Under the pieces are notes generated by a model. That model did no database searches, was not told the DNA's origin, and saw only the letters and a program-made list of their open reading frames with translations. Below are positions 10,591 through 46,667 of a stretch of DNA of 64,000 nucleotides, in pieces. A program made the translations under genes and the position numbers. Origin of the DNA: Eledone cirrhosa (Eukaryota); the NCBI GenBank assembly GCA_964016885.1, contig OZ024743.1, positions 325,748,001 through 325,812,000 on the forward strand. The letters run 5' to 3'. Within the stretch, counting starts at the first letter, position 1. Every line of letters begins with the position of its first letter.

Positions 10591-11057
10591 TTTTAAATTC
10601 AACCTTTATATTAAAACCTAACATTATTTTAAATTCAACCTTTTTGTTAAGCTGTGTTACAAATAGCATCTTTATAACAAAACAATAATTTTAGTAAATT
10701 CCTCCAAATTCTTAATTAATTCATTAACTCTCAATGTCCTGAACCACATGAAACCACATTAGCTAGACACTCATGAAAAATACAAAATAGCTCTGACTGC
10801 ATCACATCAAAAATTAGACTTCATTTTCATTTTTCATACTGCAAGTTAAAATGTGTATTTCATTAGAAATACAACCATAAAAGGTTTCAAAAGTTTGTGA
10901 TAATAGCTAGCTGGGGGGGGGGGTTTCTGTGTGTGTTAATACATTACAGTGTGGTGGGGGGATTTATGGTATATTGTCATAATAGACTATTTTTGTCTTT
11001 CATTCTACTGAAGTTTTGTTATATTCTTTTTTTTTTCTATTTTCCTTTTGTCCTCAG

Positions 11058-11271
11058 ACAATCTGGTGCTGTGGGAAGTCGTTTAACTGGTGCTGGATGG
11101 GGTGGCTGTGCTGTGTCTATGGTCCCCACTGAACAACTTGAAAGTTTTATGGAGAAAGTTAAGGACCAATATTATATGTCTGACTCAAAACGAGCTGGTA
11201 AATTGAAAGAATCACTTTTTGCCTCCAAGCCAGGTAATGGTGCTGCAGTGTATCTATTGGCACAGAAATAA
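11058..11271 (+). CDS. GALK2: GALK2 terminal coding exon
   Basis: cctcag|ACAA; GAVGSRLTGAGWGGC (GHMP motif 3)...LFASKPGNGAAVYLLAQK*; AATAAA at 11329-11334. Confidence 0.95.
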
Positions 11272-16324: not shown

Positions 16325-17070
16325 GCGGTAGAGGGTCGGATGCCATGCTTTGCAGCATAAAGTTACGCCCCTTTACGGTCAAATTCCACTGAGTTAACTT
16401 TGCCTTTCATCCTTATGGGGTCGATAAAATAAAGCACCAGTAATGTACTGGGATAATGCTGGCCTTGTGCCAAAAATAGAAACATTATTATTAATAGACA
16501 TTAATAGACAAGGGCGGTGGATTGGCAGTATCGGTAGAGGGTCGGACGCCATGCTTTGTAGCATAGTTACGTCCCTTTACGATCTGAGTTCAAATCCCGC
16601 TGAGGTTGACTTTGCCTTTCATCCTTACGGGGTCGATAAAATAAAGTACCAGTAATGCACTGGGTAATTGCTGGCCTTGTGCCTAAAGTAGAAATAATTA
16701 TTATTAATAGACATTTACGTTCTGAGTTCAAATCCCACCAAGGTTAGTTTTGCCTTTCATCCTTACAGGGTTGATCAAATAAAATACCAGTAACGCTTGG
16801 GATCGATTTAATCGACTTTCCAATCCCTCAAAAAATGGGTGGCCTTAAGCCAAAAGGAGAAACGATTATTATTAATAGACATTAAGGATTAGCAGTATCG
16901 CTAGAGCGTCAGACACCATGCTTTGCAGCAAAGAGTTATGGCTCTTTAAGTTCTGAGTTCAAATCCCACTGAGGTTAACTTTGCCTCTCATCCTTACGGG
17001 GTCGATAAAATAAAGTACCAGTAATGTACTGGGTATTTACTGGCTTTGTGCCAAAAGTAGAAACAATTAA
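16325..17070 (+). mobile_element. Cluster of ~4 head-to-tail Meta-like SINE copies
   Basis: Repeated GAGTTCAAATCCC..TTTGCCTTTCATCCTTACGGGGTCGATAAAATAAAGTACCAG units separated by ATTATTAATAGACATT. Confidence 0.85.
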
Positions 17071-17451
17071 TTATGAACACTTTTATATTGGGAAAATAAA
17101 AAAAAAAGTAAAAATGAATCATTTGATAATCTCAATTACATTATTAAATTCACAAAGGTATTACTTAAATATGAATACACACAGAGACAGTGAAGATAGA
17201 TATAAGCTATATACTCAGTGTTTGACTTGAGATATGTTGGTGAGTCCTTATGGAGGGGCAGAATCAATAGAATTTTGACTCCTACCATCATATAAATTTT
17301 TGAACCAGTGGCCAATCGGTTGATGGTATTTTGATGACGTGTAGGGATTTCAGTTACTAATGTACTACTGTGTCACCTGTCGCATTCACTGCCATAGGTG
17401 GCACGGACTGGAATCGGATTCTGTTGAGCGATTGATTATTGATTAGGCGAG

Positions 17452-17564
17452 ACCCGCTGATGAAGCCATATGCGATGATTGTGCATTGTTGCATAATAAA
17501 TGCAGACCGTAGATGCTGTATATTCTCTTGCTGCATTAAGTGTGGCTGAAACTGATGTATGGGT
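17452..17564 (+). ncRNA. Type I hammerhead ribozyme with a 70-nt insertion in stem II
   Basis: Stem I ACCCG/TGGGT; core CTGATGA (17457-63); stem II AGCCATA/TGTGGCT; GAAA (17548-51); stem III AC-TGAT-GT; cleavage triplet GUA (after 17559). Confidence 0.75.
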
Positions 17565-18176
17565 ATAGATTAATGGTACCCATTTACATGTGTTGATTTG
17601 AAGCAATTAACTTTGGGTCTACTCTGGGATTTATACATAACTATACCTATTGAGTATGCTGAGAGGCAACTGGTACTAGCAGGGAAACATATGCTAGTCT
17701 TGTCAACTTCTTATTACTCAGGGGTTTACATATATAAGCTTATAATGTCAATATGAAGAATGAAGGGAGTAAGATAAATCTTCAGCAGACTTTATAGTCT
17801 GCTCTATATGGTATGTATTAAATAGAATAATGAATTTTATACAACAAACTTTATCATAAATTTTCTGGATATAAATTTATCTTGTATTTAGAATCATATC
17901 ATAATTATTTGTTGTTTATTGTGTGTGTGGGAGGGAGGGGTGTATATATATATTCTCTTTTCTTCCCCTTTGTTTTCCTTCCCTCCTTGCTCCGTTTTCC
18001 CAATAACTTATCCAGTTATTGACGCCCTGGGGGGAGGTATATTGTCTTTAAAGCGTAGAAATATCCAAGACCCCCAGTAGACAACTGATGAGGACCCCCC
18101 GCCCCTGTTCTTGCTTTCTTTGTATTCCCACTGCATTTTAAGTTACCTTAGATAGCAACTACACAGCCATTTCTAT

Positions 18177-20479: not shown

Positions 20480-20708
20480 ATTTTCATTTCATTTTTCATT
20501 TCACATCCACTTTTCCCTGCTTGCAAGGGTGGGACGGGAACTGATTCTGGCTTGATTTCTACAGTTGGATGCCCTTCCTAACACCAACCTCATTTACGGT
20601 GAGTGCTGGGTGCTTTTTTGCCGTGGCACCTCCACGACCACTTTGCAGTGGAATGATAGGGACCCCAGTCCCTATCATCTCATTTCTACAGCTGAGTAAA
20701 CTGGAGCA
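20480..20708 (-). mobile_element. CORE-SINE with RTE-like 3' tail, truncated by the retrozyme-like insertion
   Basis: Near-identical to the copies at 35490-35775 and 46668-46995. Confidence 0.8.
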
Positions 20709-20732
20709 AGAGTTGTAACAACAACGAAACTA

Positions 20733-20782
<50 letters not shown>

Positions 20783-21934
20783 TAGTTTCGTTGTTGTTAC
20801 AACTCATCAGCAATATTTACCTATCTACCGGCCTTTCTGGAGAATCGTAAAAGCACATATCGTTATATGCTTTTTCTATGAAAATTAGTAGTGGGCAGAC
20901 TAATTTGCATAGAGTGTGAGTACGTACCGGTTCAACGGAGACGATAAAAACAAATAACGAAACGAAATTAAATTTCGTTTCGTTTGTAACTCACTTTTGT
21001 ATGACTGACGCTTAAACAATTAAGTTAAAAATGTACATCCATATATGTATACTGAAATACTAGTATGCATATGAATACACACACGTATACATATGTAGAT
21101 GTACCAAGTCTTTCACTGGTTACTTTACTGTGAGTATCCAGCTATTCTGTATGTAAACACACAGACAAACCGGTTTTTAGAGTCATACTGGTTTTTGAGG
21201 AAACACCTTTCCTCTATTCTCCAGAAAGCCAGACAAGGAATATTGAACTAGTTTCGTTGTTGTTACAACTCATCAGCAATATTTACCTATCTACCGGCCT
21301 TTCTGGAGAATCGTAAAAGCACATATCGTTATATGCTTTTTCTATGAAAATTAGTAGTGGGCAGACTAATTTGCATAGAGTGTGAGTACGTACCGGTTCA
21401 ACGGAGACGATAAAAACAAATAACGAAACGAAATTAAATTTCGTTTCGTTTGTAACTCACTTTTGTATGACTGACGCTTAAACAATTAAGTTTAAAATGT
21501 ACATCCATATATGTATACTGAAATACTAGTATGCATATGAATACACACACGTATACATATGTAGATGTACCAAGTCTTTCACTGGTTACTTTACTGTGAG
21601 TATCCAGCTATTCTGTATGTAAACACACAGACAAACCGGTTTTTAGAGTCATACTGGTTTTTGAGGAAACACCTTTCCTCTATTCTCCAGTATGACTCTA
21701 AAAACCGGTTTGTCTGTGTGTTTACATACATAATAGCTGGATACTCACAGTAAAGTAACCAGTGAAAGACTTGGTACATCTACATATGTATACGTGTGTG
21801 TATTCATATGCATACTAGTATTTCAGTATACATATATGGATGTACATTTTTAACTTAATTGTTTAAGCGTCAGTCATACAAAAGTGAGTTACAAACGAAA
21901 CGAAATTTAATTTCGTTTCGTTATTTGTTTTTAT
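20709..21934 (-). mobile_element. Non-autonomous hammerhead-bearing tandem element (non-LTR retrozyme-like), 466-bp unit x ~2, with inverted ends
   Basis: Direct repeat starting at 20781 and 21247; no protein-like ORF; a hammerhead at the unit junction; inverted duplications at both ends (20709-20734 and 21687-21934); flanked by (TA)n. Confidence 0.8.
21239..21283 (-). ncRNA. Minimal type I hammerhead ribozyme, intact
   Basis: Minus strand AATATTG-CTGATGA-GTTG taacaa CAAC-GAAA-CTAG-T-T-CAATATT: 7-bp stem I, 4-bp stem II, palindromic stem III (ACTAGT), GUU triplet. Confidence 0.9.
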
Positions 21935-25993: not shown

Positions 25994-26440
25994 TTAGCTG
26001 TATACTTTGTGAAAAGTCCTATGGAATTTATGCAGGCAGATAGAAAACAAATCTGTACGTCTATTTATTATAGAATCTAGATTAGAGATAATGGTAAATT
26101 TTTCATTTAGGCAGAGATTACAGATTTTAGATAGAGAGCTGTTCAAGTATGAGGACGCAGAAGAAACCTTCTTCCAAAAGGTGGTATATTTAATGTTTTT
26201 GTCTTTCAAGGACCATATGAGTTCTGAGAGAGCCGTGTTGGTTCTTTTAAGTTTGTATTTAAAAGGTGAATGATGATTATAGAGACGAGCTTTAAAAGAG
26301 GTGGAAATGGAGCCAAAATAGGTGAAGGAATTGGTGCTAGTTATAACTTTACATTCATAAATTAAGTTTTTATCAAGACAATGGTTGTTGAGAGGACATT
26401 TATTGTTAATGCGGCAGTTGCAATTAGAGAGATTATTAAT
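25994..26440 (-). mobile_element. Degraded PLE GIY-YIG endonuclease fragment, inverted relative to the adjacent copy
   Basis: The minus strand gives CNCRINNKCPLNNHCLDKNLIYECKV..TYFGSISTSFKARLYNH, then a frameshift to ..CNLCLNEKFTI..NRRTDLFSICLH. Confidence 0.8.
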
Positions 26441-26459
26441 GATTATTAATGATTATAAT

Positions 26460-27269
26460 GATAAGATTATGTACATAGATAATGATAGACAAACTAAACA
26501 AAATAACAACTATTTTAATTACGGCAACAACCTTAACAACTATAATAGAAAGCATTACAATAATTCCAAAAGCCAAAAAAGAAATAGAACTAGGAACATA
26601 ATATGGTTTGCCCCCCCCCCCCCTTTCTCACTAAACATTAAAACCCACATCGCTAAACTATTTTTTAAAGCTCTTGATAATCGCTTCCCTAGAACACATA
26701 GGTATCACTCAATTTTCAATAGACATACTATAAAATTAACCTACTCATCCACCAAAAATTTAGCACAAAATATTAATAGAATAAATAATAGGAACTTAAA
26801 ACCTAGCGATAATAGCATAAATAATATACAAGATAACAAATGTAACTGTAGAGATAGATCTAAATGTCCGTTAAATAACAACTGCTTAGTTAAAAATATA
26901 ATATACAATTGTAATGTTAAAACTGACTCTAATTCTTTTAACTACGTCGGTTCCACATCGACGGAATTTAAACTTCGCTATAATAACCACAAGAATTCTT
27001 TCACAGATCCAAGCAAAAAATCTTCAACAGCACTATCAGGCGTACTCTGGCAACTTAGGCAAGATAACGTTAGATATTCGACGGCTTGGAATATAGCCTC
27101 AAGAGGGATTCCTTTTAATTCATCCTCTGAGACATGTGACCTCTGCGCAGAGGAGATATTCTTTATACTAAAATCTAAAAATTCCCTTAATCTACGGACA
27201 AATTTATTCAGTTGCTGCAAACATAGATTAAACTCAACTTTTAAATATAAATTTAAATTTAAAATGTAG
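26460..27269 (+). mobile_element. 5'-truncated Penelope-like element ORF (linker plus GIY-YIG endonuclease; possibly Naiad-type)
   Basis: RNIIWFAPP..FPRTHRYHSIFNRHTIKLTYS..CNCRDRSKCPLNNNC..IIYNC..NYVGSTSTEFKLRYNNH..CDLCAEE..CCKH; no RT domain present. Confidence 0.85.
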
Positions 27270-29590: not shown

Positions 29591-29827
29591 TTTTGGGGTT
29601 TTTTTTGTGTGTGTATTTGCATGTGTAGTTTTATTTTATTTTATTTTTCCTTTCCTTCTCCCTTCTCCAGCCTCACTTTCATATAGATTGCATTTTTGTT
29701 TTTGTAATCCAAATTCAATAAACAAACCAGGATTTTTTCGTTCTGAGGATTGAAAGCAAAACCTTTTGCTTTTAGGAAACCACTGGTAAATGGAATAATT
29801 GCCTTATGTTGTTTATTACATAATAAT

Positions 29828-29918: not shown

Positions 29919-32861
29919 ACGTAGTTTAGAAAGCCACAACAATGCAGAGGGAAATCTCGAGGTAGGAAGTGAATGATAGATAAGAGAAATAGGAGAAAGT
30001 GAAAATAGAGAGAGACAAAGATGAAAACAAAACAAACGTAGAAGGGTTACCGTAGTGGAGATTTAATCCCAATATTTCGGGCTCACGCCCATCAACGGGG
30101 GAAAGTTCCGAAGGGGGGGGAACAGGCTAAGCGGAGAAAGTTGTGATGTCGTTAAAACAGGAATGCCGTTATGGGGAGAAAAATTATTTAAAATTTAAAT
30201 GAGGGAAAGAATGCGCGTGCGCGTGATAGGCTGTGGCAAAAGCTACAGACCAAATGGGTTAAATCAAGAGGGTGCGCTAGCGTGTGAAAGCCGTAAAATA
30301 TGTGTGTGTAAATATTTATGTGTGTGTAACTGTGTGTGTATATGTGTAAGTGTGTATATGTGTGAGTGTGTGTGTGTGAAAGATAGTGGGCTGTAGAAGC
30401 TGGAAATCATAGGGTGTGAAAGGTGGTAGGTTGTAAAACATGTGTGCGTGTATAAACATGTGTGTGTGTAAGCGTATGGGTATACATGTGTGTGTAACTG
30501 TGTGTGTGTATGTGTGAGTGCGTGTGTGTGTGAAAGATAGTGGGCTGTAGAAGCTGGAAATCAAAGGGTGTGAAAGGTGGTAGGTTGTAAAACATGTGTG
30601 CGTGTATAAATATAGATGTGTATGTGTATGCGTATGGGTATGCATATACGTGCGTGTGTGTGAAAATAGCAGGCCGTAAGGGCTGTGAATGGTCACTATG
30701 GTTAAGTTAGCCATGTCAGCTCATTACTCTCAGCCCGGTTGTTAAGTGGGGGTCTGAGGTTCTTAATAACAAGTGCTTCCTTTATCCTTAAGGATCCGAT
30801 GCTGCGTTCAGTCGCTAGGACTGTGACCAAGGGTCTACCCTGTGGGTTTCCGCATTTAAGGACGTGTTTACGGAAGGAAGATGCGTTGGTGTTGATATGT
30901 TCCTTGATACGAACATGTAGGGGTCGGATGGTGCTACCTATGTAAAACTTGTTACATTTATCGCATTGAATCTTATATACGACATAGGTGCGTAGGCAAT
31001 CTGCCCCCCGTATCGGGCAGTTGCTGAGGGAACACGTCCCATCTGACTCGTCGGGTTTGTTGGAGAGGCATCTTCGCAGCGAAGGTCCTGTGTGGGCCAA
31101 ATGTATGTCAAGTCCCTCCGTCCGTATGGCCCTGCGGATGGCGTTCGTGGTATATTCACTCAGGTGGGGGATTTTAAAGAAGCACCTGCTTTTATTTGAG
31201 TTTCTAGTGGGTGTCTGTCTATTGGGTCTGGGGTCTCTAATTCCGTTAATCAGTCGCTTGGGATATCCATTAGACCTGAGTAGATTACGGAATTGTGTGG
31301 TATGGGTGAGACCACCCATCGGGTCGCTGCATCTGTTAGTGATACGTGTCAGTTCATTTAGGACATAGCCTCTCTTAGCGTTGTTGGGGAGGGCTGAGTT
31401 GTAATGCACAAATAAGTCCTTGCACGCTGCTTTGCGGTAGAAGGTGGTGTTTATGTCTCCTTCTTCCGAGATGTTGATACGGAAGTCGAGGAGGGCGAGT
31501 GACCCGTCTTCTCCTGGGTGTTCGATGGTGAAATCGACGTGATGGTCAGTATCGTTGAAGATTTGGTGAATTTCATTCGCCATCTCCCGGGAAGAAGTAA
31601 GTATCAGGATGTCATCAACGTATCTGGAGTAGAAGGCGACGGCGTTGGGTTGGCAGGTATTGAGTGCCTTGCGTTCCAGGTGGTCCATGTACGAGATCGC
31701 AAGTATGCCGGACAGACTAGAGCCCATAGGTAGCCCAGAGATTTGTTTGTACGTGTGGCCGAGGAAATTGAAGAGTGCATTATCCACAACGAAGGAGAGG
31801 AGTTGGTGGATGTCCGTGTGTGTGAGTCCGAAGCAGTGTAAGTTAGATGCTCGGACTCGTTCGGTCAACAGGTCGACGGCTGGGGATGCTGGTACGGAGG
31901 TATAAAGGGCGACCACACCAAGACTGAAGGCATAACCGTTGTCCTTTCTGGTGCTGGGCGCCAGATGGTGTAGTCGCTCCAAGACCTCCTTTGAGCTGCA
32001 GACGTGGGCTGGTAGTGTGTGTAGAATAGGTTTCAGTAGTGTGGAGAGCAGCCACGATATTTTGTAGAGTGGGCCCTCCACGCTAGAGACAATGGGCCTG
32101 ATTTTCAAATCGGGTCCTTGTTTATGTGTTTTAACCAGGTGGTAGAAGGTGGGTAGTTTGCTGTTTCGAGTCATTATGTTGTTTTTTACCTTCTTTGGCA
32201 GTTTTCGTTGGACACAGATGTTAGTCCATATGGTGTTAATGCCTTCCTCGATTAAAGTCGAGGAGGTCCCTGTGACTTTCGAGTAGAGGCTGTGGTCATT
32301 AAGATGTTGGAGAGCCAAGTTGTTGTAGGTCTCTCTCGAGATGACACAGAATTCTTTCCCCTTGTCAGAGGGAAGGTACACAAGGTTCCTGGATCTTAGG
32401 TTGGTGAGAGTGTTGAATTGTGCATTGGTGAGGTTGCGTTTATTGTGTGTGTGTGTTGGGAAAAGATGCTAGAGATAGAATGTTTCAACCTGAGTAGTTT
32501 AGTGTCAAGTTCGTGGTTGGTGGGTGGGGGTGGAGTGGGTTGTCGAGGTGGTACGTGGGGAGTGTGGGGTGGGTTGTGGGGTTGTAATCGATCTCGGTGT
32601 TGTTGTTTTGGATGGCGGTTAGCCATTTCAGTTGATATGCTGTCCGACAGAAGTTGGTTTCGATGTCGAGTTTCAGTCTATCATCGAGACGCTGTGTAAT
32701 GATGAACTTGGGTCCGAGGCGCAGAAGTTCGAGTTCGTCGTTGGTGAGGGTACCGGTTAGGTCAGTAACGAGGTGTGAAGCATCGTTGGTAGGTAGATCG
32801 ATGTTGGGGGGTGTAGCGGAGGGTGTTGTATAGCTGTTGCCCCTGGTGTGGTTGCAGTCGG

Positions 32862-45444: not shown

Positions 45445-46241
45445 GTATGCAAAGCCATAGTTATATATTGCACTTCTCTAACTGAACAAATTATATTGAC
45501 TACTTAATGTAAATATTTTACATGTTTGTATTAACGTAATCCTTTTATGCAAATTTAGATATTTTAGTTGTTGTTACAATCAATTATGTATAAGGTTGTT
45601 ATGCTGGTGACACAATGAAAAAGTACCCAGTCCAACCTGTCAGTTGGTCAGATATTTTTGGGGCCATGATAAAAAGCCCCCAGTCAATGTTGTAAGCGTG
45701 GTTGGTGTTGGAAAGGGCATCAAGCTGTAGAAACCAAGCCAGAAACGGTTCTGTATGAGCAAGACACAGTCACCTGATCTGACTTATCCCACAATGAGAC
45801 AACTCCTCTTACTCGTGCTAGTTCGGAAGATAGACGTTAAACAGTGATGGTGGTGATCGTTAGTCTTCCAAAGGCAATTTAATTGACAATGTTAAGAGAC
45901 TTTGAACAAAAATTATACCAGCACGAGGTTTGCACCCCTGGGGCCAGTACAATGCAAGTGGCAATGAAAACTGAATGTGTTGCTTCTGCAGTGCCATAGC
46001 ACTATAAACATACACATCATCAAGAAGATGCTGGCAGAGCTCCCTGATCTAATTGTGCATGCACTGGTGAATAGGGTTATGAGTGTGAATGGAAAACTGA
46101 TATCAATGCACATGAGATATGACTATAATAGTACCGCCTCCTCTATAATAGTTAACTGTCTCTGATTGTTATATTAGATCATTGACAAGATTCATGTTTA
46201 TGCAGTATTTAGTACATCTATGATTGTATAACACTTTTCAG

Positions 46242-46559
46242 GGTCACATTGGTTATTTGAAATAACTTATATGATATTGAGAGGAAACAGTGAAAGAGTC
46301 CCCATGATAAAGGAAGATTTACTATTAGACTGGGCAACAATAGAGCATCTTGATGCAATTGAATCCCCCCGGCTCTTGAACACACACCTTCCTATTGAAT
46401 TTCTACCCCCGGAATTGCTAAAGGATCATAAAATTCTCTACATAAACCGCAACCCAAAAGCTATGATGGTGACATACTACAAACACGTGAAGGGAGCTAA
46501 TTTATTTAAATATGATGGAGAATTTTCCAGCTTTTTTCCCCTTTATATGAAAGGGGAAG
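46242..46559 (+). CDS. Sulfotransferase-like exon 2
   Basis: tttcag|GGTCACATTGG...GAAG|gtaagt; SHWLFEI..SPRLLNTHLP..KILYINRNPKAMMVTYY. Confidence 0.92.
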
Positions 46560-46667
46560 GTAAGTCGTCAAGATTATTGTTACTACTACTACTACTACTA
46601 CTACTACTAATACTACTACTACTACTTCTAATACTACTGTAATGTTATAGGATATAGAATAGAATAT

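Follow-up and report, generated by a model that had tools for sequence, protein, structure and literature searches.

A hammerhead ribozyme with a branched stem II lies in a truncated copy of a repeat that likely spread as folded RNA using the enzymes of Penelope-like retrotransposons

The hammerhead motif examined here, found in a window of 64,000 nucleotides (the whole stretch of DNA that was analysed), is real, beyond chance and part of a repeat copy (Table 1). With a probability of roughly 85%, this is a dead, 5′-truncated copy of an ORF-less repeat of ~888 nt that moved in trans, as the retrozyme-like passenger of a Penelope-like element (PLE); the repeat likely spread as folded RNA using the enzymes of such retrotransposons. 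We propose that a source tandem would be transcribed across more than one unit, that a PLE RT/GIY-YIG protein would nick AT-rich DNA, and that cDNA synthesis would begin at one internal position, lying 150 nt 3′ of the hammerhead cut site, and break off at variable points. The source hammerhead is predicted to be off as a monomer, with a 2-bp stem III and an out-competed stem I, and to cut only as a dimer via its palindrome, or with the help of protein. The branched stem II is predicted to spare the geometry of the core and is likely a tolerated folded cargo or a protein-binding site. The window locus is one fossil among thousands and carries little weight by itself.

Table 1. Positions, in the window, of the repeat copy, its ribozyme and its predicted structures, with other hammerheads of long stem II in flanks of fetched loci
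Feature	Position	Strand	Remarks
Left direct repeat	17212..17218	+	TACTCAG, 7 bp; probable target-site duplication
Repeat copy, subfamily A	17219..17714	+	5′-truncated: 3′ ~496 nt of ~888-nt ORF-less unit; genome search and alignment
Long predicted rod upstream of ribozyme	17306..17441	+	21-bp helix 17306-26/17421-41 in family fold; several pairs broken in window copy
17-position hairpin, tip of rod	17368..17406	+	At two pairs, both bases differ between subfamilies
Type I minimal hammerhead	17452..17564	+	Predicted cut after A17559
Stem I	17452-56/17560-64	+	ACCCG/TGGGT
Core pieces	17457-63; 17548-51; 17557-59	+	CTGATGA; GAAA; GTA
Stem II, 7 bp	17465..17546	+	17465-71/17540-46; opens to three-way junction in predicted fold
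Hairpins IIa; IIb	17478-17497; 17499-17537	+	Arms of stem II three-way junction
Stem III/loop III	17551..17558	+	ACTGATGT in window copy; palindromic ACTCGAGT in family majority
Alternative hairpin taking stem I 3′ strand	17560..17582	+	In both subfamilies
Terminal hairpin	17675..17698	+	~11 nt before fixed 3′ end
Fixed 3′ end of family	17702..17714	+	GTCAACTT + ATT/TA; inferred reverse-transcription start
Right direct repeat	17715..17721	+	TACTCAG
Other long-stem-II hammerheads	L005 +630; L042 -2392; L145 +885; L068 +40; L019 +3409 / L094 +2446		Offsets on named strand

All 11 core positions are intact in the window copy, and the core halves and stem I lie where a preliminary description of this DNA had placed them. 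A descriptor search returned 3 hammerhead cores in the window, against an average of 0.05 after dinucleotide shuffling, where a core turned up in 2 of 40 shuffled windows. The hammerhead alone folds weakly (z of -0.57 for 17445-17570 and -2.2 for 17452-17565). Its two core halves are separated by 84 nt; Rfam gave no match at the gathering score for this region and no hammerhead up to an E value of 10, and the hammerhead search of Craig et al. 2021 (PMC8557442), in the available part of that paper, was for cores with 7-17 nt spacers. The motif is thus one that short-stem-II descriptors miss, as had been foreseen. All three stems had been said to pair: stems I and II do, but stem III is only 2 bp long in the window copy, with a TGAT loop in place of the palindromic TCGA of the family. 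Similarly, sub-hairpin IIb was drawn correctly, whereas IIa as drawn (TATGCG../..TTGCATA) depends on mutations of the window copy itself, the family IIa helix being ATTGTGCA/TGCATAAT. An AATAAA is found at the stem II junction (17495-17500).

The hammerhead is not stand-alone, as first thought, but belongs to a dispersed repeat family. When 17150-17800 was searched against the genome from which it comes, 2,237 first-look candidates emerged, which are not copy numbers; the 40 best were scored per search, and among the best 40 of these 2,237 the non-self matches were all 82-88% identical, most of them spanning 17218-17716. In 30 fetched loci, the right end was fixed (GTCAACTT, then TA, TTA or CA repeats) and the left extent varied. 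Since most copies reach further left than the window copy, the latter is 5′-truncated. The longest copies ran ~400 nt further leftward, to a junction with another copy of their own subfamily, whose 3′ end they adjoin; this defines a unit of 885-888 nt. This unit has 42% GC and no ORF in the majority sequence of either subfamily. Among 120 pieces from 108 non-duplicate loci, 96 ended within 0-9 nt of the unit junction, and a second 3′ end, at +15 to +24, was rare (3/120). The 3′ flanks were AT-rich or CA runs in 40 of 57 copies (a raw count), and target-site duplications were not general in the family (3/57 vs. 1.2 by chance).

The window copy has no tandem copy or PLE ORF adjacent to it, just as described. 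Elsewhere in the family, partial head-to-tail tandems reached 1.6 units, several loci having two hammerheads one unit apart; 20 of the 108 loci exceeded 900 nt (a class enriched through the choice of query) and 4 contained both orientations. No array of two full units was seen in the 108 + 30 loci, the longest being 1,406 nt among 30 junction-spanning loci. Tandem partners were no closer to each other than unrelated copies (divergence of 0.105-0.20 vs. a mean of 0.145). A fixed 3′ end at TA/ATT microsatellites, ragged 5′ ends and partial tandems are hallmarks of PLEs. The family is older than the SINE-like insertions that interrupt several of its copies (L093, L100, L110 and L193); a very abundant SINE-like repeat of this kind is also present in tandem copies at 16500-17070 of the window. 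Two loci, L033 and L034 (C1:352.58 and 352.61 Mb), are inverted, 27 kb apart and identical in match scores and junction sequence, indicating either a recent segmental duplication or an assembly duplication. Other assembled contigs, perhaps from the same individual, match the window copy nearly without differences, and RAD reads barely cover it.

The family majority has a stem I of ACCCG/CGGGT, a 7-bp stem II and the sequence GAAAC-TCGA-GTA, which makes its stem III palindromic; together with stems I and II, it has the conserved core CUGANGA / GAAA / UH. The family hammerhead is of the PLE minimal type in its palindromic stem III and has, in addition, a stem II that opens into a three-way junction. 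The PLE minimal hammerheads of Cervera & de la Pena 2014 (PMC4209133), as described in its available text, are likewise type I, with a helix I of 5 bp, a helix II of 7 bp, an extra nucleotide after the first core half and a palindromic stem/loop III, and mostly occur as single dispersed motifs from truncated elements; they are weakly active in vitro and thought to work as dimers. Unlike them, the family has ~68 nt in stem II, arranged as a three-way junction; the base of this stem shows an A-C or a bulged C, and no ORF lies between repeats. The Hydra-clade PLE hammerheads in the accessible part of PMC8557442 also have ACTC..GAGT stems and a mismatch at the stem II base, but the longest loop 2 in that part of the table is 34 nt, compared to the 68-nt branched insert of the family. 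The non-autonomous Chlamys PLEs of the same source, e.g. MRC1, resemble the family in having partial tandems that form pLTRs, truncated 5′ ends, now and then an inverted arm, and (TA)n targets; in contrast to these PLEs, no autonomous partner has been identified for the family.

The family also resembles the animal non-LTR retrozymes, which, in the portions available of the two reports (Cervera & de la Pena 2020, PMC7229834; Li, Clavereau & Pollet 2026, bioRxiv 10.64898/2026.07.22.740005), are non-coding head-to-tail units with one type I hammerhead, GC under 45-50%, strong self-pairing and a proposed dependence on PLEs. Li et al. give a range of 51-972 bp, which includes the unit length; however, the retrozyme circRNAs tested in these studies are 170-400 nt long vs. 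888 nt here, and the family is known from DNA alone. Published non-LTR retrozymes, as far as these sources go, have a canonical hammerhead and tandem arrays, whereas the family has a minimal hammerhead and no full dimer or multimer was seen. Because arrays in the strict sense hold two complete units, we file the family as a non-autonomous PLE-type repeat that is retrozyme-like. The earlier suggestion of a structured, ribozyme-bearing, retrozyme-like RNA unit is supported by these family data. Literature searches on Octopus and PLE hammerheads listed no description of the family, which may already stand in a repeat catalogue under another name.

The unit could alternatively be the long 3′ UTR or pLTR of an autonomous PLE whose ORF-bearing copies were unsampled. 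PLEs are heavily 5′-truncated and most of their minimal hammerheads are single motifs (PMC4209133, available text), and only the best 40 candidates were scored per search. The 5′ part of the unit also has splice-like signals and an ATG, as in pLTR-proximal regions: full-length copies (e.g. L053:1501-1545, in a part missing from the window copy) show a splice-acceptor-like tract, a 13-nt stretch with ATG and a GTAAGT donor-like site, possibly the relic of a 5′ micro-exon of a parent PLE. However, all long copies pass from the 5′ end of the unit into the 3′ end of another unit or into flank, never into shared coding sequence. PLE ORF pieces near L045, L138 and L190, considered as a potential partner, are set apart by microsatellite or unrelated sequence and look like separate insertions. 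We therefore consider a pLTR origin unlikely.

An autonomous partner for the proposed passenger was not found. In the 150 family loci that were fetched, some of them duplicates, no copy ran on into a PLE ORF. Neither of the two young PLE families in the window has sequence in common with the unit. The 3′ ends of the published Octopus Naiads, Naiad_Obim and Naiad_Ovul, showed no resemblance to it on reading by eye or in a motif search of the available part of a supplement, in which line breaks may conceal motifs. The first of the two young families (RT + GIY-YIG, 30702-32468 on the - strand, with a 3′ UTR to about 29915) has 30,361 candidates, of which those scored are 96-99% identical as protein; in the 3′ UTR of this family lies a hammerhead-like variant core, TTGATG..GAAA, that was not accepted by the descriptor. 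The second, a family with a ~745-aa ORF that is Hydra-clade-like by eye, has 78,566 candidates when seeded from 26361-27269; in the window it is represented by an inverted pair of fragments at 25994-27269.

Of 65 aligned pieces, 33 group into subfamily A and 31 into subfamily B; L018 was left out. Copies differ from their own majority at 19% of CpG positions and 7% elsewhere; the window copy is 8.6% (42/491) from the subfamily A majority, with 20/52 and 22/439 changes, respectively. The core is intact in 24/31 A copies and 10/29 B copies, so that an intact core is unremarkable, and the palindrome in 13/31 and 14/29. At the base of stem II (A-GCC..GGC-C), the family can form a G10.1-C11.1-type pair only with a bulged C, and otherwise has an A-C that CpG decay has turned into A-U in the window copy. 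CpG decay also accounts for the G-U next to the core in stem I of this copy (CGGGT in the family). The self-duplex of stem III is predicted at +1.2 kcal/mol in the window copy vs. -10.7 for the family palindrome, and the window copy, lacking palindrome and partner, likely does not cleave. The core was less variable than its neighbours in subfamily A (6/310) but not in B (19/286), and a base-matched comparison in the set chosen by 3′ end was not significant (13 vs. 22.4, P = 0.09). Stems I-III are identical between subfamilies, leaving the hammerhead itself without covariation, and RNAalifold recovered neither the hammerhead nor the upstream hairpin from 56 decayed copies.

The preliminary description also claimed a structured island of about 400 nt. 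The excess of folding was confirmed (z of -3.4 for 17230-17650, with 0/100 shuffles as good), but the true extent of the island is that of the repeat copy. The upstream hairpin that it reported was confirmed and folds more stably on the + strand (-21.0 kcal/mol) than on the - strand (-15.5). Folded as the + strand, the majority monomers had z-scores of -6.5 and -5.0, whereas their - strands gave -2.3 and -1.0 (14 shuffles in each case), and the majority monomer is 63% paired when folded as a circle. We then predicted the structure from one subfamily and scored it on the substitutions of the other at the 53 sites where they differ, with spectrum-matched random placement as the expectation. Far fewer confidently predicted pairs were broken than expected (5 vs. 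17.3 and 4 vs. 15.1), with 0/5,000 draws as low. The two-sided changes in the upstream hairpin (C-G 19 / G-C 15 and G-C 24 / A-U 22, in 56 rows) are two events, not many. Since the differences between subfamilies avoid breaking predicted pairs, the modelled structures point to structural selection on the source RNAs. It did not act on the window copy, in which 8/42 substitutions break pairs vs. 9.3 expected (P = 0.37).

The same predictions bear on the activity of the ribozyme. TGGGTA (17560-65) and TACCCA (17577-82) had been proposed to sequester stem I, and do so with pair probabilities of 0.94-1.0; the downstream hairpin takes stem I at P above 0.94 in both subfamilies and in the window copy. 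Stem I itself has P ≤ 0.04 in context, and the active fold lies ~6 kcal/mol above the ground state in the monomer. Folding thus agrees with a source ribozyme that would be mostly off. The idea of a co-transcriptionally switchable ribozyme found no support in folding: stem I has a P ≤ 0.08 at every nascent length folded, even before TACCCA is made. A hairpin across the tandem junction had a P of 0.0. The monomer scores much the same whether folded as a linear or as a circular RNA and forms no helix across the junction; folding does not separate circle from concatemer.

The window copy was also suggested to be a domesticated ribozyme, which would make it a switchable self-cleaving element of a host transcript, between a GALK2-like exon upstream (10867-11271 on the + strand, a GHMP kinase C-terminus, galactokinase-like) and a sulfotransferase exon downstream (46232-46642, +). 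It lies on the same strand as both exons, its core is intact at 11/11 positions and CpG decay has given it the A-U at the stem II base. Nevertheless, an intact core is common in subfamily A, the palindrome is lost and stem I weakened, stem I hardly forms in context (P ≤ 0.04), and the 42 substitutions break pairs at the neutral rate. The copy is not single-copy, keeps no structure beyond neutral decay and decays like its siblings, making domestication very improbable.

Judged by the features of Helentrons and HINEs, the repeat could be a rolling-circle DNA transposon, non-autonomous and with a hammerhead only by accident: a hairpin sits ~11 nt from one end, copies can be tandem and neighbour microsatellites, target-site duplications are mostly absent, and ACTAGCA occurs near both unit ends. 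The strand-specific fold and G-U-preserving changes point to RNA instead, the hammerhead is palindromic and of PLE type, and one end is fixed while the other is broadly ragged; we give this explanation scarcely any credence. An endogenised viroid-like or infectious circular RNA, amplified secondarily, would fit the size and the strong fold, but is just as implausible given a hammerhead on one strand only, a branched fold at 42% GC with no junction-spanning helix and equal linear and circular scores, and thousands of candidate matches among dispersed copies with PLE-type ends, and the earlier proposal of a viroid-like circRNA insert is not supported.

Returning to the PLE passenger, we asked what RNA had been copied, using 60 loci chosen solely by their last ~146 nt; L103 and L113 (mis-anchored) and L134 (the same insertion as L121) were dropped, and copies shorter than the ~146-nt query fall outside this set. 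The cut site precedes the fixed 3′ end by 150 nt. Among the remaining 57 insertions, 53 extend at least 10 nt through this site, 3 stop within 2 nt and 1 at +10, i.e. there is no pile-up of 5′ ends at the cut site. Three apparent truncations are interruptions by another repeat, and the true copies can only be longer. The template was therefore continuous at this point, either an uncut concatemer or a re-ligated circle. The 53/57 figure is in line with in-vitro work in which PLEs copied RNA that had not been processed. In the available text on Poseidon PAc of Anolis (Frangieh et al. 2024, PMC11167929), unprocessed RNA is the main template and the hammerhead needs protein help, to which we liken the family; both also share AT-rich (ATT) targets and an internal RT start. 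By analogy with this in-vitro result, we lean slightly towards uncut RNA over a re-ligated circle. PAc differs in being autonomous and in having two RT start sites that give a tail, while one 3′ end dominates in the family.

The family contributes, from a cephalopod-type genome, a large non-autonomous PLE passenger whose structure was under selection; its insertion pattern offers a natural substrate for asking what PLE hammerheads do. Flanks of the fetched loci contained five other hammerhead sequences with 51-88 nt between core halves, unlike the family and one another; long, branched stem II inserts are common in this cephalopod-type genome and invisible to Rfam and short-loop descriptors. 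A broader reading, which we offer as doubtful, is that Octopus-type genomes hold overlooked PLE passengers whose stem II domains are large and folded (51-88 nt, in six or more unrelated families of the genome searched here), the 888-nt RNA of the present family being structure-selected and copied as a ligated circle with its ribozyme off, and the three-way junction serving as a recruitment site for PLE protein. If this were true, surveys based on descriptors would have counted too few PLE hammerheads and retrozymes, and some 'hammerhead-less' PLEs would be among the cases missed.

Other repeats of the window also deserve mention. A different high-depth repeat at 17950-18150 has CTGATGAGG at 18086 and no complete hammerhead. 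A hammerhead family with a stem II of 26-27 nt is represented at 29743 (+) and also in L051 and L072. Lastly, two 466-bp units at 20781-21690 (-) are 99% alike and carry canonical minimal hammerheads (21276 and about 20810) and a (TA)n end, with a short inverted piece beside them at about 20700-20733; this pair is either a young retrozyme-like dimer or a pLTR dimer.
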